Assembly: GCA_964607485.1 (NCBI GenBank)
Contig: CAZSKP010000024.1
Span: 1 to 64,000, forward strand
Reading direction: 5' to 3'
DNA length: 64,000 bases
DNA from: an uncultured bacterium
Lineage (GTDB): Bacteria > Abyssobacteria > SURF-5
Position numbers and translations under genes: made by a program. Every line of letters begins with the position of its first letter. The first letter of the stretch is position 1. This document shows, piece after piece, positions 34,870 through 43,852 of the stretch. The notes under the pieces were generated by a model that was not told where the DNA came from, did not search any database, and saw only the letters and a program-made list of their open reading frames with translations.

Positions 34870-34943
34870 GCGCCCGTAGCTCAGGCGGATAGAGCAGCGG
34901 TTTCCTAAACCGCGGGTCGGGAGTTCGAGTCTCCCCGGGCGCT
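34870..34943 (+). tRNA. tRNA-Arg(CCT), integration target
   Basis: Acceptor stem GCGCCCG/CGGGCGC, anticodon arm GCGGT-TT-CCT-AA-ACCGC and T-arm GGGAG-TTCGAGT-CTCCC. Confidence 0.95.
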
Positions 34944-34946
34944 CTC
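34899..34946 (+). repeat. attL, 48-bp direct repeat (3' half of tRNA-Arg)
   Basis: GGTTTCCTAAACCGCGGGTCGGGAGTTCGAGTCTCCCCGGGCGCTCTC, identical at 43733-43780. Confidence 0.95.
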
Positions 34947-34960
34947 ATTTTTTGCCCGTT

Positions 34961-36136
34961 TTATGGGCTTTGTTGAGCGCGCCGGAGTTCCTTCTTGAAG
35001 GGCAAAATGTTGGGTAGGGCAGTTGCTATGGCAGTTGTCGGCATGGCGTCCAGATATTCCGCCTGTCTTTCCGCAGCCTCTCTCAGGTCCGCCTCCGAGA
35101 CGATGTTGTAGCGGTCAAAGATCGACCGGGTCTTGTGGCCGGAAACCTGCATGGCCACGCGCTCCGGGATTCCCGCCCTGACCATGTTCCTGATAGCGGT
35201 CCGCCTGAAGTCGTGAAACAGCCGGTCGCCGACTCCCGCCTTCCTACAGGCCGTTCTCCAGGTTTTCCCGAACTGTTTTATGCGGTCGGTTCCGCGCTCG
35301 TTCTGAAAGACGAAAGCCCTCGGGTCGCCCTTACCGCGCCCGCACTCTCCCAAGAACAAATCTCTCAGAAGGTCGTAAAGCTCGTGGTCCAGCGCAAGCG
35401 TCCGGCCTTCGTCGTTTTTGCTCTTGCCCGGGCTCAGCGTAACCGTCCGTTGAATCAAATCAACGTGGTCCCAGGTGAGCGATGCGATCTCTTCCCGGCG
35501 CCAACCTGTGCGATAGGCGAACGTGACAAGTCCCCGTAGATATTCCGGGAGGGCGTTCCTGAGCGCCAGGAACTCATGATGCTCAAAGAACCCCGTCCGT
35601 GGGCTGCTCTCTCGAAGCATCGGAAAATGCGGGAGCCGGTCCACCTTCGGCGGCGTGCAGTTCCTGCCCAAGTTGAGCATTCTCTTGAGTGCGGCGAGCT
35701 CGCGGTTGATTGTGCTGTCCTTCACCTTCCTCTCGCCGTTCTTATCTCCCTGTTCGTGCCGTTCGCTCTGGCGAGCCTCGATGTAGGCCTTCAGGCGCAT
35801 CGTGTCGATTTTGCAGGCCCGGACCCCTTTGAAATGTCTCTTGAGGTTGGCCACGTGTTGACGGGCCCGCCGCGAGCTCTTCTTGTTCTTCATGTCTGCG
35901 AGGTAGAGCTCCGCGAGCTCCTCGAATGTCGTCTTGTCGAAGTAGTAGCCCGGGAGCCTGCCCTGAGCCACTTCCGCCTTGCGCTGAGTGAGAAGCTTCT
36001 GAGCGTCCGTCTTTCTCGTGCTCTTTGAGTTTTCCCGGATGCGCCGCCCCTCTGAGAAATAGACAATCCACCACGTCTGGCCTTCTCGATATTCGCCGGT
36101 TTTCCTGTCACGGTACTTCGGTTTGTACACTCCCAT
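34961..36136 (-). CDS. int: tyrosine recombinase / phage integrase
   Basis: Catalytic TGWRREE, K (SKNDEGR), FHDFRRT, GHKT...DRY; N-terminal arm-binding domain. Confidence 0.95.
   Translation of the reverse strand: MGVYKPKYRDRKTGEYREGQTWWIVYFSEGRRIRENSKSTRKTDAQKLLTQRKAEVAQGRLPGYYFDKTTFEELAELYLADMKNKKSSRRARQHVANLKRHFKGVRACKIDTMRLKAYIEARQSERHEQGDKNGERKVKDSTINRELAALKRMLNLGRNCTPPKVDRLPHFPMLRESSPRTGFFEHHEFLALRNALPEYLRGLVTFAYRTGWRREEIASLTWDHVDLIQRTVTLSPGKSKNDEGRTLALDHELYDLLRDLFLGECGRGKGDPRAFVFQNERGTDRIKQFGKTWRTACRKAGVGDRLFHDFRRTAIRNMVRAGIPERVAMQVSGHKTRSIFDRYNIVSEADLREAAERQAEYLDAMPTTAIATALPNILPFKKELRRAQQSP
35013..35036. repeat. putative integrase arm-type sites (tandem 12-mers) inside the 3' end of int
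   Basis: GGTAGGGCAGTT GCTATGGCAGTT; matching pair at 43590-43613. Confidence 0.6.
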
Positions 36137-36434
36137 GCTTTGATTTCCCCTCGCCGATTAACAGCGCCAACTCACCGGGCCTTCTTCGCCCGCTCGAGCG
36201 CAGGGCGACAAATCTCAGGATGTTGTCGAGCTCGTAGATAAACTTTTTGGAACTCAACCGCGAAGGTCTGAGGATATCGTTGATATCCGGGTCCGAGCGC
36301 CATTGCCGGAGCGTTTCTGTCGATACCCGAAGTAATGCGGCCGCCTCGCCCTGGTCCAAGAACCGTGGCAGCTCCTTCAGTTCCCTCTTGCTTGGCTTTC
36401 CTACGGCTCTCATTCCTTTCCTCGGAGTCCTCAT
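36108..36434 (-). CDS. excisionase-like winged-HTH protein
   Basis: FLDQGEAAALLRVSTETLRQWR (MerR/HTH_17-like); overlaps the int start. Confidence 0.7.
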   Translation of the reverse strand: MRTPRKGMRAVGKPSKRELKELPRFLDQGEAAALLRVSTETLRQWRSDPDINDILRPSRLSSKKFIYELDNILRFVALRSSGRRRPGELALLIGEGKSKHGSVQTEVP

Positions 36435-36446
36435 TCCATCACCCCC

Positions 36447-36749
36447 TCAGCACCAAAAGGGAAACTGCTCGCGAAATTTCTCCAGGTTGATCGGCCGGCC
36501 GGCGATGGTATCCGCGATCGCGCAGACACGGTAAAGGATTATCGCCGGAAAGTGCTCCCGGTCAAAAGCGAGTTTATACTCTGCTCTCTTTCCCCGTCCG
36601 ACCCGAAACAGTCCTTGTTGTTTCGGGTCCCATACGAGGTCCCCGGGCTTCACTTCCGCCGCCCTGTCCAGAATCAGTGCTGGCTGATTGTTGCCGTCCC
36701 CACTGACGTAGACGTAATCCAGCCGTCCGTCTCGTTGTTTCTTTTTCAT
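36447..36749 (-). CDS. hypothetical protein (first gene after the structured leader)
   Basis: 100-aa ORF with GGAGGG SD region, co-oriented with xis-int. Confidence 0.6.
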   Translation of the reverse strand: MKKKQRDGRLDYVYVSGDGNNQPALILDRAAEVKPGDLVWDPKQQGLFRVGRGKRAEYKLAFDREHFPAIILYRVCAIADTIAGRPINLEKFREQFPFWC

Positions 36750-36765
36750 CTCTCATCCCTCCATG

Positions 36766-36908
36766 AAAAAAGCCCGTTCGGGCGGGGATGGTGAGTCACG
36801 ATGTCGCGAGCGGCATACGTGAAACGCCCCGACAGAACGGGCAAAGGTTTCTGTTGGCCAAAAACAGAAAAGGCCGCGTCGCTTTCATCATCGTGACTCA
36901 CCGGGGAT
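36766..36908 (-). ncRNA. structured leader RNA resembling C4/CI-type antisense attenuators
   Basis: 14-bp perfect complementarity 36790-36803/36889-36902, 8-bp stem 36772-36779/36835-36842, and terminator GCCC-GAAC-GGGC-U6. Confidence 0.55.
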
Positions 36909-36938
36909 AGTGTAGCAGCCGGCGGGCAGCCCTGTCAA
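36909..36938 (-). promoter_or_regulatory. sigma-70 promoter for the leader-ORF-xis-int transcript
   Basis: TTGACA-18bp-TACACT on the minus strand. Confidence 0.6.
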
Positions 36939-37065
36939 GGGAAAAATGCAGCCGGACTCTAAAAATCCTTGTAGCATCCCAAGAAGCTCCAGGACGCCCT
37001 GAGAGAGGCAAAGGCGGTGTGAGCGGTATCATAGAGGTTCAGCTCCGGGTTCTCACAGGGAAGCC

Positions 37066-37449
37066 TCAGCCAGCGTGGTTGTCCGTTGGATTTGGAGGTC
37101 TCTCCAGGTCCTGCTCCGCCCGGTCAACATAGTCGGCGCACATGTCGCAGATTTTCCCGCCCATTATCCAAGCCGCCCCGGACGGCTTCTTCCCGAAGAC
37201 CTCCAGCACCGTTTCGGTAATCAGGTTCCAAAGGTCAGCTATCCCGGCGATGACTCTGCTTTGCGCCTTCTCTGCGGAATGCGCTTTCTTGGCGTACGTC
37301 TCGAGCTCGGAGAAATACCAATCCATGAGCGCTTCCACTTCTCCCCGGAGCTCCGCCTTTTCCTCTTTTGAGAGAGGATATCGAGGGAGATAGTCTCTTG
37401 CCAGCTCCTCCAGGGTGCGGCGAAACTTTTTCTTCGCTTTTCTGTTCAT
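37066..37449 (-). CDS. hypothetical helical protein coupled to the tape-measure gene
   Basis: ATG overlaps the TMP stop (ATGA); 127 aa starting MNRKAKKKFRRTLEEL. Confidence 0.6.
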   Translation of the reverse strand: MNRKAKKKFRRTLEELARDYLPRYPLSKEEKAELRGEVEALMDWYFSELETYAKKAHSAEKAQSRVIAGIADLWNLITETVLEVFGKKPSGAAWIMGGKICDMCADYVDRAEQDLERPPNPTDNHAG

Positions 37450-39212
37450 CTCAGGATGCCCCGCCGCCGGCCGCGTTCGATCGCAGGGAGGAACTCGTCG
37501 CGCATGAGCCGCCGCCATGACTGTTGTTGCTCCGGCGCCGTGCCCGGGAAATGGAAATGATTGACCATGCCCCCGCCGCCTGCCGCCGCCACGCTCAACT
37601 GGAGTGGCGAGACGTTCATGCTCGAGATGAACGCGTCGTACTCCCTGCGCATCGCCTTGAGGCCTGTCGTCCAGTTTTCCAGCGGGCTGGGGGACTTTCC
37701 CGTGAGCGGGTTCAGCCAATCGAATGCCTTCGCCGCTCCCGCGATGATTGCCCCGATGGTGCGATTCCACAAGTCTCTGATATAGTCCGTGAAGGACCTC
37801 CACAGGCCTTTCAGCCGCTCCCACGACGAGGAGAGGAAGTCCTTGATCTCGCCCCATCCGTCCATGAACGGCCAGTACACGTAATTCCAGAACCCGAGCT
37901 CTATCTCCGTCCACAGCCTGTCGAGCCCTTCCTTGATGTCCTCCCAGTAGATAATTGTGGTCGCGATGATGGTTCCCCACAGCGCGATCCCCGCCGCGAC
38001 CGCTGCAATGATGCCCGCTGTCGTGACGCCGATCGTTGCGACCACCGCTGCGAGCGTTGACACCACCACCAACGCCGGTCCGATGATGGCGACGATCCCC
38101 ACTATTGCAAGGACTATCGCCTGAACGTTGGGGGAGAGCTCTGTGAACCAGTCCACAACCTTCCCTATGTACTCGATCAACTTCTCCAGGCCCGGTTTCA
38201 TTTTGTCGAACATGTCCAAGAGCTTGTCGCCGAGCGGCTCCAGGGCCGACATGAGCCTGTTCTTCAGCTCCCTCATGCGCCGGGAGAAATTGTCCGTGTC
38301 CTCATAGGTCCGATTGATTGTCTCCTGGCTGTTCTTCAGAGAGTTCAGGAGCTCGTCTATCGCGAACCGCCCCTCGCGGATCGCCGCCGCCATGTCGGGC
38401 CCGGCCCGGGCGCCGAACATCTCCAGCGCTTTCGCGTTCGCCTCCCCGACGGAGCCGGCCCGCTCGATGTCCGTGAGAAGGTCTTTGAATGCCTGCGCCG
38501 GCTCGCCGCCCGCCTGGGCTATTTGCGTGAGCGCCTGGCGGAGGCCTCCGAGCACGAGCTCCGTGTTGACGCCTTCCTTCTCCCACTTTCCCATGAGCGC
38601 CGCCGCTTCCTCGAAGCTGTAGCCGACCTGTCTGAGCGGCGCGCCGTATTGAACGAGCTTGCGCGAGAGGTCCTCGACGGAGATTCCGGTCTGCTGGCTG
38701 ACTTTGTGCAGGTAGTCGAGCGCCCCGGCCTGGTCGTCGGTCGTGATGCTCCAGTCGCCGAACAGCCGTGTGACGGCCGCGATGAGGCTCTTCACGTTGC
38801 CGCCGCCGATCTCCTGCAGCTTGAGAAACTGTGAGGAGAGCTTCTGGAGCGGCTCGCCCGAGAGGCCGAGTCGGGTGTTCAGGTCCGCGATCGCCGTCGC
38901 CACGTCGTCCGTGATAGAGGGGAGCCTCGTGAAGACAGCCTTGAAATCTTCGTCCAACTTCTTCAGCGCCTCGCCCGTGGCGCCTGTGCCGGCGCGTATC
39001 TTGTTCATGGCCTGGTCAAACCTATCCGCGCTCGCGGCGGCCGCCGCGCCGATGCCGAGGATGGGGACGGTTAGCAGCGCCGAGAGCTTCGTGCCGACGT
39101 TCCGAAAATTCTGGCTCATCTTGTTCAGGTCTTTCTCGATTTGCTTCACGGCGCGCTGAAAGCCCGTCGTGTCCGCGCCGATGACGGTTATCAACGATCT
39201 GAGGGTTGCCAT
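37446..39212 (-). CDS. phage tail tape measure protein (TP901-like core), short at 588 aa
   Basis: N-terminal LITVIGADTTGF, core FDQAMNKIRAGTGATGEAL...GYSFEEAAALMGKWEKEG, TM segment, Trp-periodic repeats and SPSP motif. Confidence 0.85.
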   Translation of the reverse strand: MATLRSLITVIGADTTGFQRAVKQIEKDLNKMSQNFRNVGTKLSALLTVPILGIGAAAAASADRFDQAMNKIRAGTGATGEALKKLDEDFKAVFTRLPSITDDVATAIADLNTRLGLSGEPLQKLSSQFLKLQEIGGGNVKSLIAAVTRLFGDWSITTDDQAGALDYLHKVSQQTGISVEDLSRKLVQYGAPLRQVGYSFEEAAALMGKWEKEGVNTELVLGGLRQALTQIAQAGGEPAQAFKDLLTDIERAGSVGEANAKALEMFGARAGPDMAAAIREGRFAIDELLNSLKNSQETINRTYEDTDNFSRRMRELKNRLMSALEPLGDKLLDMFDKMKPGLEKLIEYIGKVVDWFTELSPNVQAIVLAIVGIVAIIGPALVVVSTLAAVVATIGVTTAGIIAAVAAGIALWGTIIATTIIYWEDIKEGLDRLWTEIELGFWNYVYWPFMDGWGEIKDFLSSSWERLKGLWRSFTDYIRDLWNRTIGAIIAGAAKAFDWLNPLTGKSPSPLENWTTGLKAMRREYDAFISSMNVSPLQLSVAAAGGGGMVNHFHFPGTAPEQQQSWRRLMRDEFLPAIERGRRRGILR

Positions 39213-39241
39213 CGCTTTTTTTCCTTAGTTCCCCGCAAGAT

Positions 39242-39301
39242 GCGGCGGCCGGGAAAGGAGGCCCCCTGCCTGATTGAGGGCGAAAACAGCCCGGCCGCCG
39301 C
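39242..39301. repeat. 12-bp perfect inverted repeat between the decoration-like and TMP genes
   Basis: GCGGCGGCCGGG (39242-39253) and CCCGGCCGCCGC (39290-39301). Confidence 0.8.
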
Positions 39302-39334
39302 GCCTGCGGTCAACGGAGGTTGTTGTGGACCCGG

Positions 39335-40036
39335 CTATATCGACGCGCTGGCTCCCACCTTTTGGGTGACGCCTTCCCGAGGATCCCCTCGAAGGAGCAT
39401 CGCCGATACGACCGAATTCGCTGTAGTCGTGACTTTGCACGCGATGTGAGTGAATCCGTTCTCATGGTCCAGGGCGTGGCCGTCGAGCTCGACGTAGGCC
39501 TGGGCCTTCGTGGTCGCGAGTGTGATCGTTCCCGCATTCTCCGTCTTGTCCGTCGTGATGACCGTGGCGCCCGGGTTCGTGCTCACCAACGTCACGAGAG
39601 TTCCGTTGGCCGACGCCGTGACACCCGGAGCGCCGTAGGTGGCGTGATTGACGCAGGTCACGAGCCCGGCCGCGTCGGCGAACTCACGGGCCGTTGCGTC
39701 CGTGGCCGCAGCCTTCGTGAAGTCGATTCCGTTGATGGTGACCACGTCGGTGTTGGCCACAGATGCGAGCTCCACGGTGGCCTCTGTCACCAGCGTATTC
39801 GCTGTCACCGTGGCCGAAGCGCTCGTGATAGCCTTCGCGTCTGTCGCCTCTGCGTCCTTTGCCTGGAGCAGCTCGATCTTCGTTGTCTTCGTCGCGGCCA
39901 TTGCGCCGCCGTTCAAGAGCGCCAACGCTTTGCGGAACGGGCGCATGTCGTAGTAAGGCCCCGTCGCGTTGGTGTTATTCAGGGCCTGTGAGACAAGCCC
40001 GATGTCCATCTTTGCACCTTCGTAGAGTTTCTGCAT
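39335..40036 (-). CDS. virion structural protein, probable capsid decoration/cement protein
   Basis: Directly after the MCP with AGGAGG SD; Thr/Ala-rich beta composition; inserted Ig-like segment DVVTINGIDFT...VTASANGTLVTL. Confidence 0.55.
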   Translation of the reverse strand: MQKLYEGAKMDIGLVSQALNNTNATGPYYDMRPFRKALALLNGGAMAATKTTKIELLQAKDAEATDAKAITSASATVTANTLVTEATVELASVANTDVVTINGIDFTKAAATDATAREFADAAGLVTCVNHATYGAPGVTASANGTLVTLVSTNPGATVITTDKTENAGTITLATTKAQAYVELDGHALDHENGFTHIACKVTTTANSVVSAMLLRGDPREGVTQKVGASASI

Positions 40037-40059
40037 TTTCAGACCTCCTGTCCCGGCAC

Positions 40060-41349
40060 CTATGCCGGGATGATTCCCGTGATAACGTTCAAGTGGGCCG
40101 GTCTCAGCACCGCCACGTCCACCCGGAGGTAGCCGCGGACCAGCACCTGCATCTTCTCAAACGTCTTCTCGTCGCCCGCCTTCGACACGTCCAATTGCAG
40201 CTGCGTCCGCATCCCGAACAGTAGGTTTTTGAAGCCTCCCATGAATGCGGAGCTCGCGTTGGTTGCCGAGCCCTGCGTCTGATCTATGGGCACCTGGTTG
40301 GTGACCAGCCGCTTGAGCGCGAGAAAATCGTCCGGAGGCTTGAGAGGTGTGTTGTCGCTAGTAATTCCGGTTTTCAAGCCGGCCAGGGCGCGCTTGGTCC
40401 GCGGCGCGTAGATGACCGCGGTAGCCTCCCCGTTGCTCGTCTCGATGTCCTCTATGGCGTCCAGGAACGGGTCGTAGTTTGTGAAGGCGGCGCCGTTCGT
40501 GCCCATCGAAACGGAGCCGACGCCGTCAGTGTTCCAAATGCCGCGAGGCTCTCCGACGCCCGAGCCGAGAAGACCGACGCGGTCAACCTCGAGCGCGAGA
40601 GCCGAGGCGATCATCTCTTCAAGTGTCCCGGTGAAGGATTGCACGTCCTCGATGAGCTGCAGCGAGACCCGGCAGAGGCAGGCGACGGCTACCGCGACCA
40701 GCTTGATCGGTGTGAACGTGGCGTCCGACTCGGTGATCTCTTCGTTTTCGGCGACCCAGTACGGCGTCGGCTCGGTGACCACCTTCGCGATCGTGACTTC
40801 CGGGGTCTCCATCGGCAGGGTCAGTGCCCCCGCCTGGACGCACCGCGCCTTGTTACGCGCCAGGTCGATGATGGTCCCGCTCAAGGTCGTCGGAAGCAGC
40901 ACCCCGCCCAGGGCGCCCGTGCCTTCTCCCATAGCCCGCCGCTCTGCCTCGGCCCCTTTCCAATCCTTCAGGACAAGTCCGCGAAACGCCCGGCCCAGGT
41001 TGAGCTCACTGGGAAGGATTCCATCGGGCAGGTCGCTCCGGACGAAATCTATCATCCGCTCTTCGGGCCTGAGCAGCCAGCGCCTGTCTCTATCCTCCAA
41101 GCCGTGAGAGCCGGCGCCGTCAATGATACGGCTGCCTATGTCGGTCCGCTGCGAGAGCGCGTCAACCGAATTGAGCCGGGTGGCGTCATCGAGGCGCTGC
41201 TTCAAGTCGCCCACCTCTTCCTCCAATGTGTCGAACTCCCTGCGTTCCGCCGCCGTGAGCGTGCGGTTCTCCTTCTCTGCCGCTTCTCGGATTGCCTTCA
41301 TTCGCGCGATCTTTTCCTCGCGCTGCTTCATCAATTCTCGTAGGTCCAT
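40060..41349 (-). CDS. HK97-fold major capsid protein with N-terminal coiled-coil delta (scaffold) domain
   Basis: Charged coiled-coil N-terminus, GGVLLP...IIDLAR, WVAENEEITES...F, VSLQLIED, GSGVGEPRGI and C-terminal RVDVAVLRP. Confidence 0.9.
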   Translation of the reverse strand: MDLRELMKQREEKIARMKAIREAAEKENRTLTAAERREFDTLEEEVGDLKQRLDDATRLNSVDALSQRTDIGSRIIDGAGSHGLEDRDRRWLLRPEERMIDFVRSDLPDGILPSELNLGRAFRGLVLKDWKGAEAERRAMGEGTGALGGVLLPTTLSGTIIDLARNKARCVQAGALTLPMETPEVTIAKVVTEPTPYWVAENEEITESDATFTPIKLVAVAVACLCRVSLQLIEDVQSFTGTLEEMIASALALEVDRVGLLGSGVGEPRGIWNTDGVGSVSMGTNGAAFTNYDPFLDAIEDIETSNGEATAVIYAPRTKRALAGLKTGITSDNTPLKPPDDFLALKRLVTNQVPIDQTQGSATNASSAFMGGFKNLLFGMRTQLQLDVSKAGDEKTFEKMQVLVRGYLRVDVAVLRPAHLNVITGIIPA

Positions 41350-41421
41350 TTCTTGTTTCCTTTCCTCTTTTTTTCCGTTCCGGTTGCGCGGGCAGAGGAG
41401 CGATCCCGCTCCGCGTTGTGG

Positions 41422-41712
41422 TCATCCGACCAGGGACGCACCCTGTTCTCTTGCACGTTTCGCTTTTCGCCGATCTCTCCATCGGCGGTGTTGGGCTTTG
41501 ACGTTTCCCTTCCGGCCTCGGCGTGGTGAGACACCCTGCCGATCAGTCCAACATTCATGAGAGCAGAACCGTCGCTTTTCCTGATAGAGCGGAACGCTGT
41601 AGGACCGGCCGCACTGTTCGCATATCTTTGTCAGGCGACGGCCATTGAACCGCAGACGGTCCGGTTCCCTCGATTGATGCCGCCAACGGCAACCCATCAT
41701 TTTCTTCTCCAT
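41422..41712 (-). CDS. small basic C4 zinc-finger protein
   Basis: CEQCGRSY...RRFCSHEC motif. Confidence 0.55.
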   Translation of the reverse strand: MEKKMMGCRWRHQSREPDRLRFNGRRLTKICEQCGRSYSVPLYQEKRRFCSHECWTDRQGVSPRRGRKGNVKAQHRRWRDRRKAKRAREQGASLVG

Positions 41713-41840
41713 TTGCAGACGTATGCAAAGTCAAACCTCGCCCAGGGGGGGGCTATTGCAATTTCGCGGCATCTTGCGGAAGCCTGCCATACCGGTTTCA
41801 GAGCTCAGAGGCTCCAGTGATTTTCTGCCCCCTCCCCTTG

Positions 41841-42476
41841 TCACGTCGGAACCTCCGACAATCTCTCCACTTCGCCTTCCGCTTCGGCCAACTGCCTCAC
41901 CGTTTCTTGATAGCCGCGGTTCGATTCAGGGGCGCCCAGGTGCCGGAGTGTCTCGAGAGAGCGTTTCAGGCGCGCCACCTTTTCCTGCGGTTTTTCTTCT
42001 TCGGCGGTTGACCCGCCCTGAGTTCCCTTCCGAGTTAAATTAGGAGTTAGGGGCCCACCGGCTAGCCCCCCGGTTCGTGCATCCCTTAGCCCCCCGCTAC
42101 CTCTCCGTTGTACCCCCGCACGCGGACGCGGAGGTCTATCGGTTGTATCCCCGCCTACACCTTGCGGGGGGCTACTGCCTGCACCCCCGCTCGCATGAGT
42201 CCATTGAATGATGATGTGATAGCCGCCCAGTCTCCGGGGACGTGGATAGCGCTCGATGATTCCCAAGGTTTCGAGTTCCCGCACCGCTTTGTGGTAAGAT
42301 GCCTTGTGCTTGATTCCGGCCTCTGTCTGCAAGGTTCTGGCACTTGGGAAACACTCGTTGCTCTCCCGATTCATGAAGACGCCGATCGCAATGAGGAGCC
42401 TGAGCGTGGCCGGCCTCTGTATCTCGGGGAGTCTTTCGACAACAAACGACGGGAGCACAGAGGTACCTCTGTCCAT
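41841..42476 (-). CDS. phage replication-initiator-like protein (N-terminal winged HTH)
   Basis: CFPSARTLQTEAG...KAVRELETLGIIER...Y (HTH_36-like), followed by a low-complexity linker encoded by GC repeats. Confidence 0.65.
   Translation of the reverse strand: MDRGTSVLPSFVVERLPEIQRPATLRLLIAIGVFMNRESNECFPSARTLQTEAGIKHKASYHKAVRELETLGIIERYPRPRRLGGYHIIIQWTHASGGAGSSPPQGVGGDTTDRPPRPRAGVQRRGSGGLRDARTGGLAGGPLTPNLTRKGTQGGSTAEEEKPQEKVARLKRSLETLRHLGAPESNRGYQETVRQLAEAEGEVERLSEVPT
42063..42190. repeat. iteron-like repeats inside the rep gene
   Basis: TAGCCCCCCG, TAGCCCCCCGC, TGTACCCCCGC, TGTATCCCCGC, inverted GCGGGGGGCTA and TGCACCCCCGC. Confidence 0.55.
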
Positions 42477-42667
42477 TACCTGCCTCTCTTCGGCTGCCGC
42501 TGCTTCCGAGGAACATACACGGCAGACCCGAGCTCCACGTTGTCGTGGCGTATGATGATCTTAGTCGACGTCGTCACGACGACGGTCTCTCCCGCCTCCA
42601 AAACTCTTTCTATGAAGCGAAAGTCTTCCTCCGCCTCCGTCAATTCTTTCCCCCCCTCCTCACGCAT
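42476..42667 (-). CDS. small hypothetical protein
   Basis: 63-aa ORF abutting the rep start and overlapping the upstream HTH gene. Confidence 0.45.
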   Translation of the reverse strand: MREEGGKELTEAEEDFRFIERVLEAGETVVVTTSTKIIIRHDNVELGSAVYVPRKQRQPKRGR

Positions 42668-42864
42668 CGGTCTATGAAATCCTGGAGGTCCTCATTTCGG
42701 ACGTACTGCTTCCGTGAGCCCGGGAACACCACTACGGGAAGATGCCCGCTCCACACGTGCTTGCGGAGCGATCGCAGCGGGCAGCCTATGAGCGCCGCCG
42801 CCTCCGCGAGCGTGTAGCAGAAGCGCTTTCTAGGCTCTGGACTCTCCTTCAACTCGTCGGTCAT
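42640..42864 (-). CDS. HTH_17/excisionase-type DNA-binding protein (AlpA/Xis-like)
   Basis: YTLAEAAALIGCPLRSLRKHVWSGHLP...VRNEDLQDFI; ATGA overlap with the upstream gene. Confidence 0.75.
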   Translation of the reverse strand: MTDELKESPEPRKRFCYTLAEAAALIGCPLRSLRKHVWSGHLPVVVFPGSRKQYVRNEDLQDFIDRCVRRGGKN

Positions 42865-43436
42865 CTATCTGTGGCCATTTTCAAGATTGTTATGAGGATT
42901 GGACCCCATTGCTCTCTGAGTTTCATCCGCCGGGCCGGTTCCTCAAATTTCTTCTTTTCCTCTTCTGCCAGCCACGCCGACTGGTTCGGCCCATACACCT
43001 TCTCAGCTTCCCTCCAGAGGGTTGAATCTACTCCGTAGAGCTCCTCTTCCAAGTCCAGCTTTAGACGGAGCCATTTTAAAGCCGCGAAGGCAACCAGATC
43101 CTGGTTCTTCACAAGCCTCTTGAGAGTTCGGTCATTTTGGAGCGATTCTTCGTCCAGCGCGATATCCGGTCTTTCCAGATGTTTTGCGATCGCTCTCGCC
43201 CTTGCGACGCCTTCCGCAGAGAGTCCGTCCTCGTTCAACAAACGAAAAGACGCCCCCACCTCCGCCGCCATATTGAAGGGATAGCTTGCTTCCATTGCAC
43301 GTCCGCCGCCTTTGCGAACCTGACGCGGCGCCAACCCCTTTTTCCAGTAATTCCGTAGTGTGGCCGGGCCTATTTCTATCGGGTGCTTCAGCGACTTGAG
43401 CTCCTTGAGTACCTCGCTTAGGGCTTTCTGGCTCAT
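42861..43436 (-). CDS. MerR-like HTH regulator (probable element repressor)
   Basis: IGPATLRNYWKKGLAP...GGG...Y; AGGAGG SD and a consensus promoter upstream. Confidence 0.6.
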   Translation of the reverse strand: MSQKALSEVLKELKSLKHPIEIGPATLRNYWKKGLAPRQVRKGGGRAMEASYPFNMAAEVGASFRLLNEDGLSAEGVARARAIAKHLERPDIALDEESLQNDRTLKRLVKNQDLVAFAALKWLRLKLDLEEELYGVDSTLWREAEKVYGPNQSAWLAEEEKKKFEEPARRMKLREQWGPILITILKMATDR

Positions 43437-43477
43437 TGGCTCCTCCTTCAGAAAACTATCAATCTATCTTTCATAGT

Positions 43478-43506
43478 ATTATACAATCGAGTCTTCATTC
43501 TGTCAA
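43478..43506 (-). promoter_or_regulatory. perfect-consensus sigma-70 promoter driving the element's main operon
   Basis: TTGACA-17bp-TATAAT on the minus strand. Confidence 0.8.
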
Positions 43507-43589
43507 GTCCTCGCTACTGCCAGCGGGTGAGAACAACAGCACGTCGCCCGGGCGCCATGGCTCAAATAAGAGCGAATCCCAAGTCTTTT

Positions 43590-43613
43590 GCTAGGGCAGT
43601 TGGTAGGGCACGA
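43590..43613. repeat. putative integrase arm-type sites near attR
   Basis: GCTAGGGCAGTT GGTAGGGCACGA, same orientation as 35013-35036. Confidence 0.6.
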
Positions 43614-43688
43614 AGCGGAGAACACAAGCGGAAAAAAGGCTGTCAAATCAGGTCACAAGAGGACACATACAAGAAATCTTATAAAGGA

Positions 43689-43717
43689 TTGCAAACCCTT
43701 GACACGTCGTATATAAT
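43689..43717 (+). promoter_or_regulatory. element-borne promoter firing outward through attR
   Basis: TTGCAA-17bp-TATAAT. Confidence 0.55.
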
Positions 43718-43732
43718 GAGACCCGCGGTTCA

Positions 43733-43780
43733 GGTTTCCTAAACCGCGGGTCGGGAGTTCGAGTCTCCCCGGGCGCTCTC
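43733..43780 (+). repeat. attR, 48-bp direct repeat (displaced tRNA-Arg 3' half)
   Basis: Identical to 34899-34946. Confidence 0.95.
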
Positions 43781-43823: not shown

Positions 43824-43852
43824 TTGACTATTTAGTGTCCTCGTGGTATAAT
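43824..43852 (+). promoter_or_regulatory. sigma-70 promoter of the PHP-lipoprotein-TPR genes
   Basis: TTGACT-17bp-TATAAT with extended TG. Confidence 0.65.

Follow-up and report, generated by a model that had tools for sequence, protein, structure and literature searches.

At positions 34,899 to 43,780 of a 64,000-nucleotide stretch of DNA (the window hereafter; positions 1 to 64,000 of contig CAZSKP010000024.1, assembly GCA_964607485.1) from an uncultured bacterium of the lineage Abyssobacteria, SURF-5, lies a small integrated island that carries, besides genes for integration, regulation and replication, only three virion genes, namely those for an HK97-fold major capsid protein (MCP), a capsid decoration-like protein and a tail tape measure protein (TMP). 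The original prediction for this locus, drawn from the letters alone, had described two intact 48-bp att repeats, an excised circle of 8,834 bp and 12 co-oriented open reading frames (ORFs) free of internal stops, and all of this was confirmed: the att cores are identical over exactly 48 bp, their starts lie 8,834 bp apart, the 48-mer has two copies in the whole 4.70-Mb genome, the left copy falls in a tRNA-Arg(CCT) gene (Table 1), and the 12 ORFs, all on the minus strand, translate without an internal stop. These ORFs sum to 7,869 nt (overlaps counted), with ATGA overlaps at ORF1/ORF2 and TMP/ORF9, a 1-bp overlap between ORF3 and the replication gene (rep), overlaps of 28-29 bp at ORF2/ORF3 and between the excisionase-like (xis) and integrase (int) genes, and intergenic gaps of 316, 128, 122, 72, 23 and 12 bp. 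The GC content of the island is 59.4%, versus 57.4% for the genome.

The claimed lack of a portal, terminase and protease also stood. When profiles from related islands for portal, large terminase (TerL), protease, small terminase (TerS; two clusters), HNH and head-tail adaptor genes were run against the six frames of the island, no credible match appeared, the best one being a 30-codon plus-strand segment (36823-36912) that matches one TerS profile with E=0.0012 and was not counted as a gene, and the largest internal gap offers just 316 bp. The six-frame search found no gene stubs at the island junctions either. No neck, tail tube or lysis gene was found among the island ORFs, and neither primase nor helicase was detected with Pfam, PHROG and local profiles, which recovered only the HTH_36/phrog_270 initiator.

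Table 1. Features of the island and its borders, in window positions
Feature	Position	Strand	Basis or remark
tRNA-Arg(CCT)	34870..34944	+	ARAGORN; integration target, intact at left junction
att core, left copy, 48 bp	34899..34946	none	equals 3' part of tRNA-Arg(CCT)
Tyrosine integrase (int), 391 aa	34961..36136	-	PF00589 E=2e-22; phrog_1 E=1e-54
Excisionase-like helix-turn-helix (HTH) protein (xis), 108 aa, start uncertain	36108..36434	-	phrog_66 E=7e-6
ORF10, 100 aa, familyless	36447..36749	-	no Pfam, PHROG or NCBIfam match
Promoter-like site P2, ahead of ORF10-xis-int	36909..36938	-	10/12 consensus with TG; predicted
ORF9, 127 aa, ATGA-coupled to TMP, four predicted helices	37066..37449	-	low-confidence model
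Tail tape measure protein (TMP), TP901 type, 588 aa	37446..39212	-	PF10145; phrog_991 E=8e-61; TIGR01760; both termini present
Long hairpin between decoration and TMP genes	39233..39309	-	possible attenuator or processing site (inferred)
Capsid decoration/cement-like protein (ORF7), 233 aa	39335..40036	-	jelly roll with inserted beta domain (predicted); homologues behind MCP in siphophages
HK97-fold MCP, 429 aa, N-terminal delta-like extension	40060..41349	-	PF05065; TIGR01554
Zinc-finger ORF (ORF5), 96 aa, basic C-terminus	41422..41712	-	zinc-finger segments of HNH-family PHROGs, only E ~1e-4
Phage pre-terS (cos-region-like) motif, candidate packaging site	41753..41854	-	ahead of late genes; 15-phage DNA profile
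HTH_36 replication initiator (rep), 211 aa	41841..42476	-	PF13730 E=5e-7; phrog_270 E=6e-8
ORF3, 63 aa, familyless	42476..42667	-	no Pfam, PHROG or NCBIfam match
HTH_17 (AlpA/excisionase-like) regulator (ORF2), 74 aa	42640..42864	-	PF12728 E=6e-7
MerR-like regulator (ORF1), 191 aa	42861..43436	-	PF00376 weak, E=0.06; Atlas 0.91-0.93
Promoter-like site P1, TTGACA-17-TATAAT	43478..43506	-	12/12 consensus; predicted
att core, right copy, 48 bp	43733..43780	none	

The labels given earlier to the integrase, the excisionase-like protein, the TMP, the HK97 MCP, the HTH_17 regulator and Rep are supported by profile matches, while those of the MerR-like regulator and the zinc-finger ORF have weaker ones; for ORF1, the Atlas lead at 0.91 is a cluster with MerR_1 on 64% of its members. 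The zinc-finger ORF occupies the slot that TerS holds in the gene maps of related islands, and three of the 12 ORFs have no assignment. A second promoter had been placed ahead of ORF10-xis-int, where a promoter-like site (36938-36909, 10/12 consensus) is indeed predicted; the region has six promoter-like sites in all, compared with 1.9 +/- 1.5 in shuffled sequence. As for the borders, an empty attB could not be demonstrated: in the same-family genomes that have the PHP gene lying to the right of the island, neither tRNA-Arg nor apt is found within 1.5 kb upstream of it (7/7). A host promoter region upstream of that PHP gene (43824-43852), just beyond the right att core, is conserved in six of seven family genomes and marks the host side of the junction. 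Elsewhere in the genome, beside tRNA-Sec, a 103-aa integrase segment (G000:C19:41558-41863) is 43% identical to the island integrase and is possibly the remnant of another island.

The virion genes and the capsid lineage

The capsid protein is what places the island among others. It is at most 27% identical to cultured phages (among 40 listed of the 45 matching phage records), and the nearest homologues of the three virion proteins reach about 52% identity for the MCP, 46% for the TMP and 74% for the decoration protein, the last being known as a protein only. When IMG/VR was searched with a 70-sequence capsid alignment with the 80 best of 286 stretches retained, 73 of the 79 contigs of this MCP lineage proved shorter than 14 kb and none exceeded 33 kb, in contrast with the contigs carrying the decoration protein, 27 of 66 of which are longer than 14 kb. 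Among 168 loci of the lineage, many of them fragments, a portal was found in 69 and TerL in 53. A search for flanking repeats then yielded 38 bounded elements including the island; five (L052, L055, L062, L063 and L286), whose repeats do not enclose the whole island, were dropped. The 32 complete relatives that were kept span 6.3-11.2 kb, and they have a portal in nine cases, TerL in eight and neither in 22; with L325, a locus described below, 23 of 33 complete relatives are without both. TerS is present in 14 of the 22 portal-less kept relatives and absent from eight. Judged from these gene contents and spans, the MCP lineage is that of 6-11-kb islands resembling PICIs (chromosomal islands that phages can induce) and their capsid-forming variants (cf-PICIs).

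In a FastTree phylogeny of 204 MCP sequences (L325 and L271 not included), the island MCP is sister (0.97) to those of islands with portal and TerL, within a decoration-carrying branch whose other members are mostly without both, and the MCPs of full phages that have the decoration gene form a separate group. A search of 60 other genomes, nine of them of the same family, did not find the lineage, and genome sampling with capsid alignments gave a low yield, with 1/401, 1/401 and 2/135 genomes positive, the centre genome counted each time. Two further observations concern this lineage. A conserved 77-aa ORF with no PHROG family (L231:615-845 and 11 similar ORFs) stands just before the MCP gene in one sub-branch that includes L043, L211 and L271. 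In addition, L015 and L208 are low-GC islands with MCP, decoration gene and TerL and no portal, L208 having a tandem second copy, 90-94% identical.

The decoration gene stands directly behind the MCP gene in the island and in six further portal-less complete islands, and homologues of its product with 59-67% identity are encoded directly behind the MCP in full siphophages. The AlphaFold model of the protein (pLDDT 95.6) is a jelly roll with an inserted beta domain. In a structural search, the model resembled XepA/YomS (Z 10.6 and 9.9, rmsd 2.1-2.7, 100 aligned), its insert resembled tail-sheath insertion domains (Z 9.9, rmsd 2.3, 83 aligned), and further matches were one chain from the capsid of phage 7-7-1 (Z 8.1, rmsd 3.2, 114 aligned) and the KHP40 cement protein (Z 6.8, rmsd 2.9, 103 aligned); Foldseek against the PDB gave domain-level matches only, none of them clear. 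The label of decoration protein rests more on the position of the gene than on these middling structural scores. In its own tree, the protein groups with those of the full siphophages L118, L120, L117 and L122 (support 0.76 for the immediate group and 0.94 for the wider one), apart from the main satellite branch, and because of this grouping its sequence suggests a recent exchange of the gene with the helper family.

At 588 aa the TMP is on the short side, the median for 120 homologues being 716 aa, although both of its ends are kept. Homologous TMPs sit in an ordinary tail module at the 12 loci inspected out of 23 homologue loci. The hairpin ahead of the TMP gene has a predicted energy of -63.6 kcal/mol over a 141-nt stretch (z=-3.0), and none of 200 shuffles was as stable. 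Coupled behind the TMP is ORF9, whose only match among 1.84 billion representatives is itself (best Atlas score 0.82), and whose model (pLDDT 61) has no BFVD match under E=0.1.

Tape measures in related islands

Does the combination of capsid and tape measure recur? The original prediction had made its proposal depend on this, and the combination does recur in islands without portal and TerL, four of them complete (L043, L211, L275 and L325) and two partial (L215 and L271). A TMP profile made from homologues of the island TMP missed that of L043, and later TMP assignment was consequently by PHROGs, against which all 46 unassigned ORFs of at least 250 aa inside the 32 kept elements were scanned. 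L043 (49-bp att in tRNA-Arg, 9,853 bp) encodes rep, an antirepressor, TerS, MCP and a TMP of 777 aa; L211 (47-bp att in tRNA-Arg, 9,429 bp) has a TMP of 739 aa and no TerS that could be found; and L275 (19-bp att, 9,442 bp) has TerS, MCP, a 130-aa chaperone-like gene and a TMP of 699 aa. On the partial contigs L271 and L215 the MCP gene is followed by a TMP gene, the TMP match of L215 being weak (7e-5). The closest counterpart is L325, the only one of the four complete TMP-bearing relatives to share the whole set of capsid, decoration and TMP genes: it has an integrase, an MCP and a decoration protein 43% and 48% identical to those of the island, and a different TMP (722 aa, 20% identity), with no portal, protease, TerL or TerS. 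Its putative att sites, at tRNA-Arg, are 51 bp long, 84% identical and 9,859 bp apart, and its genome belongs to the phylum of a Hydrogenedentota record.

Taken together, a TMP is found in four of the 23 complete relatives without portal and TerL and in none of the ten with portal or TerL. The TMP-bearing islands occupy four separate positions in the MCP tree, from which L325 and L271 are absent, and their TMPs match different PHROGs, with no more than 30% identity between them outside short patches. Because the TMPs have almost no relationship to one another and the capsids of their islands lie on separate branches, the sequences point to a repeated capture of tape measures within one capsid lineage.

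Several features of these loci may be added. A small familyless ORF of 58-127 aa lies close behind the TMP in five islands (L043:7627-7929, L211:9010-9183, L271:4270-4515, L275:13655-13897 and 37066-37449 of the window, the latter being ORF9), and no similarity to ORF9 was detected for the other four. The 9.4-kb island with capsid, chaperone and TMP in L275 (L275:6715-16175) has entered an HK97-like prophage and splits its gene for the ClpP-type head protease; the island is bordered on each side by a 19-bp repeat. Just outside the L043 island, on the opposite strand, a second TMP, of phage type (L043:11907-14267), suggests an adjacent prophage. In L271, the MCP gene (L271:1150-2454) has one in-frame stop, owing to decay or to a sequencing error.

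A satellite reading and its alternatives

The explanation that we favour, with a probability of roughly 0.7, is that the island is a PICI-like satellite without TerS, similar to SaPIbov5, of an HK97-type cos siphophage, and that it puts its own TMP into the tails of that helper. That it is a satellite and not a deletion remnant, as had been proposed, is supported by the intact frames and att copies, by the satellite lineage of its MCP and by the recurrence of capsid plus TMP. The proposed HK97-like siphophage helper fits as well, given the grouping of the decoration protein with full siphophages and the phage pre-terS motif in the island. This motif, which would correspond to the cos site of HK97-type phages, was recognised with a 15-phage profile built only from regions upstream of TerS, which matches 41854-41753 with E=2e-5 (17.7 bits); the next-best match in the 64-kb window has E=3.3, and the best of 100 shuffles reached 2.8 bits. 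The motif is also present just upstream of TerS in L090, L007, L205 and L009. A blastn search of the cos-like stretch against phage records returned chance matches only, with no match to a genome end.

The cycle that these genes would allow can be outlined as follows. Infection by the helper would switch on P1, after which the island would excise and replicate. Its MCP might build a small head on the helper portal, either alone or mixed with the helper capsid protein, as Ccm does, with the delta domain cut off by the helper protease, and the decoration protein may stabilise this head. The helper terminase would cut and package from the cos-like site, the island being without TerS, as in SaPIbov5. 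The island TMP would displace that of the helper in tails made of helper tube and chaperone, as happens in the PLEs (elements resembling chromosomal islands that phages can induce), and at 10-15 nm per 95 aa, the rate used in PMC12987554, its 588 aa would set a tail of about 60-95 nm. The hairpin ahead of the TMP gene may lower the output of TMP relative to capsid. As small heads would exclude the helper genome, the island would probably suppress its helper.

There are also observations that weigh against this explanation. With a tighter, 9-phage profile, the candidate packaging site again ranked first, but with only E=0.07 (8.7 versus 8.1 bits), and searches for the motif in L043, L211, L325 and the interior of the L275 island were negative. 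No tail assembly chaperone (TAC) is recognisable in the island, whereas one is present in PLEs and in L275. The genome, which is 97.5% complete, yielded no helper prophage, nor a tail tube or chaperone with 45 siphophage profiles, tube and chaperone clusters included; no P27-type TerL was found, PF03354, PF03237 and phrog_2 had no match, and PF04860 and PF17289 matched only the genes of a scattered phage-derived kit discussed below. No attP or attB joint was seen in the contigs of four runs of one study, contigs being assemblies that drop rare forms, and the read depth in the likely source run is flat (island 9.3-9.9, flanks 8-9.8); given this flat depth and the missing junctions, the island either lies dormant or has a free form at levels too low for assembly. 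No close homologue of mcp, dec or tmp was available to estimate dN/dS, and the contrast of 4/23 versus 0/10 is too small for a statistical test. Finally, since the nearest MCP relatives in the tree belong to islands with portal and TerL (0.97), a recent loss of these two genes is possible.

Among the alternatives, the one that fares best, unlikely as we consider it, is that MCP and TMP act mainly as decoys that poison the assembly of helper heads and tails and so protect the host, while the island rides ordinary helper particles or none. The TMP is accompanied by neither chaperone nor hub, Ccm interferes with its own helper according to the available text of PMC5052747, tail assembly is a known target of defence (Rta, as treated in the accessible part of PMC12987554), and a small helical ORF follows the TMP both here and in L043, L211, L271 and L275, all of which would suit a decoy. 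However, neither end of the TMP is missing and its length is normal, and the retention of the decoration gene directly behind the MCP gene, here and in six further complete islands without a portal, suits real particles.

Somewhat less probable still is a non-functional or dying cf-PICI that lost portal, protease and terminase and acquired a TMP by illegitimate recombination. The sister position of its MCP to islands with portal and TerL speaks for this, as do the lack of TerS, which 14 of 22 portal-less relatives have, and the lack of visible excision in the assembled contigs; yet the 12 frames and both att copies are intact, the overlaps are tight and there are no gene fragments. Furthermore, portal-less islands are the majority of the complete relatives, eight of 22 are also without TerS, and L325 repeats the virion set.

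A different helper has been considered as well. The genome contains the scattered, integrase-less kit mentioned above, with protease, MCP, adaptor, hub and fibre-like genes at G000:C11:53798-64145, a portal at G000:C52:9854-11092 and a TerL-like gene at G000:C40:22765-24559. If this kit were the helper, in place of an incoming phage or alongside one, the island would be a satellite of a gene-transfer-agent-like system, to which it would supply a small capsid, decoration and the missing TMP, and the satellite would spread without any free helper virus. Portal, protease, TerL and adaptor, all absent from the island, are indeed present in the kit; the kit MCP is 65-86% identical in all eight same-family genomes searched, and with PF10145 no TMP was found in these eight genomes, the source genome having only that of the island. 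Nevertheless, we regard this as a far-fetched reading: with no tail tube or chaperone found in the genome, a TMP would have nothing to measure; the kit TerL is of phrog_38, as opposed to the phrog_9 type of the phages with the pre-terS motif; the decoration gene comes from free siphophages; and the capsid lineage is missing from the other genomes searched, the same-family ones among them. The MCPs of kit and island are distant (31% over 201 aa, E=0.002). One relative has its kit MCP gene at a distance of about 3.4 kb from the PHP gene that here borders the island (G003:C181:1186-6569).

Last, a deletion remnant of a 35-50-kb prophage would account for the closest TMP and decoration homologues being in full siphophages, but it is hardly credible because the MCP lineage is a satellite lineage, apart from the MCPs of those phages and of cultured ones, and, besides, no phage was seen with close matches to all three genes and the junctions hold no gene stubs.

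Comparison with known satellites

The island had been thought to fit no known family of satellites, and in this respect the original prediction went too far: it is not a new satellite type, given that PICIs with a capsid gene only, TMPs in PLEs and the combination of capsid and TMP in the elements named EPIPs have all been published. In the definition of PICIs accessible in PMC10085698, the listed core components include a capsid gene that comes without portal or TerL, and TerS as well (absent from some type B PICIs), and tail genes are forbidden in the SatelliteFinder model. Set against it, the island has an integrase (PF00589, phrog_1), regulators of the AlpA/MerR/Stl type (HTH_17 and, weakly, the MerR-like ORF1) and a capsid gene, its predicted HK97 MCP; of a primase-replicase module, the HTH_36/phrog_270 initiator is present, with no primase or helicase found; no TerS match was accepted from Pfam, PHROG or local profiles; and, contrary to the ban on tail genes, a full-length TMP lies inside its att sites.

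The nearest functional precedents are the cos-type Staphylococcus aureus pathogenicity islands (SaPIs) and the capsid-encoding PICIs. As far as the available texts describe them, SaPIbov5 combines a helper cos site with Ccm, an HK97-fold protein that occupies pentamers and is unable to form capsids alone (PMC5052747, PMC8569155), and PmCI172, which has a gene for an MCP homologue, forms small heads (PMC6092414). Like such elements, the island has an integrase, a regulator and a replication gene, together with an HK97-fold homologue of the capsid protein whose N-terminal domain is helical (PMC5052747, PMC8569155, PMC6092414, PMC10085698). It likewise has no TerS of its own and may, as they do, depend on the portal, protease and terminase of a helper by way of a cos site of helper type, for which it has a candidate. 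Unlike them, it has a TMP and a decoration gene, neither of which is described for them in the accessible accounts, and an HTH_36 initiator where they have a primase-helicase. Regarding the cf-PICIs, the capsid lineage is of the same kind, the nearest MCP relatives being 9-11-kb islands with portal, TerL and protease (compare the available text of PMC10085698), whereas the island is without portal, TerL, TerS, protease and head-tail genes and has a tail gene. The legend of Extended Data Fig. 10 of PMC12987554 does mention putative tmp genes in some cf-PICIs.

The first reports of tape measures encoded by satellites date from 2025-2026 and concern PLEs, EPIPs and F5 satellites. The PLEs of Vibrio cholerae encode a TMP that enters chimeric tails and is needed for efficient transfer, according to the available text of PMC12987554; they differ from the island in that they encode TAC (PLE11 also BhuB), use the helper capsid protein and parasitise a lytic phage with a contractile tail. 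The EPIPs of Mycolicibacterium aichiense come closer in gene order, with the MCP gene directly followed by the TMP gene and no portal or TerL annotated (PMC12822802; OR387110 Alyssa1 and OR387117 JSGardenL2), although this preprint is inconsistent on capsid genes and no mention of portal, terminase, capsid or protease was found in its supplement. Both are small (about 11 kb for EPIPs), helper-dependent (for the island, on the explanation favoured here) and equipped with an HTH replication or regulatory gene, but EPIPs have TerS, head-tail adaptor, stopper, often a scaffold, a serine integrase and an MCP of 274 aa, as opposed to the 429-aa MCP with delta domain, decoration gene, tyrosine integrase and absent TerS of the island. 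High similarity among members defines the EPIPs, and the island shows only 23% identity to them in the MCP and 21% in the TMP, EPIP proteins matching no other frame of it than that of the MCP. The F5 satellites of coliphage SUSP1 also have a TMP among very few structural genes, as far as the accessible part of bioRxiv 10.64898/2026.10.15.759431 describes them, but they are defined by the absence of capsid and packaging genes and combine the TMP with a baseplate gene only, whereas the island has an MCP. Portal-less mini genomes, one with a TMP among them, appear in the available text of PMC13669383. No published description was found of the capsid lineage or of a TerS-less set of MCP, decoration protein and TMP, in a search that lay mostly outside subscription journals.

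What this island contributes is its place in a broad capsid lineage with independent captures of TMPs, together with a second island that has the same trio of virion genes, and a candidate packaging site. One widespread lineage of small capsid islands in unrelated uncultured bacteria would have taken up TMPs several times, with or without TerS, chaperone and decoration gene, which suggests that the tailoring of tails is a common and repeatedly evolved strategy of satellites, non-contractile tails included. A satellite finder that forbids tail genes would probably reject such islands. With only three virion genes, and with L043 and L275 apparently culturable or isolate-derived, these islands offer a minimal system to study why a satellite brings its own ruler. 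By its gene content, the island would work like a cos-type PICI with a tail ruler of the kind known from PLEs and EPIPs, yet it falls outside the PICIs as defined (by its tail gene and its lack of TerS), outside the cf-PICIs and outside the EPIPs.

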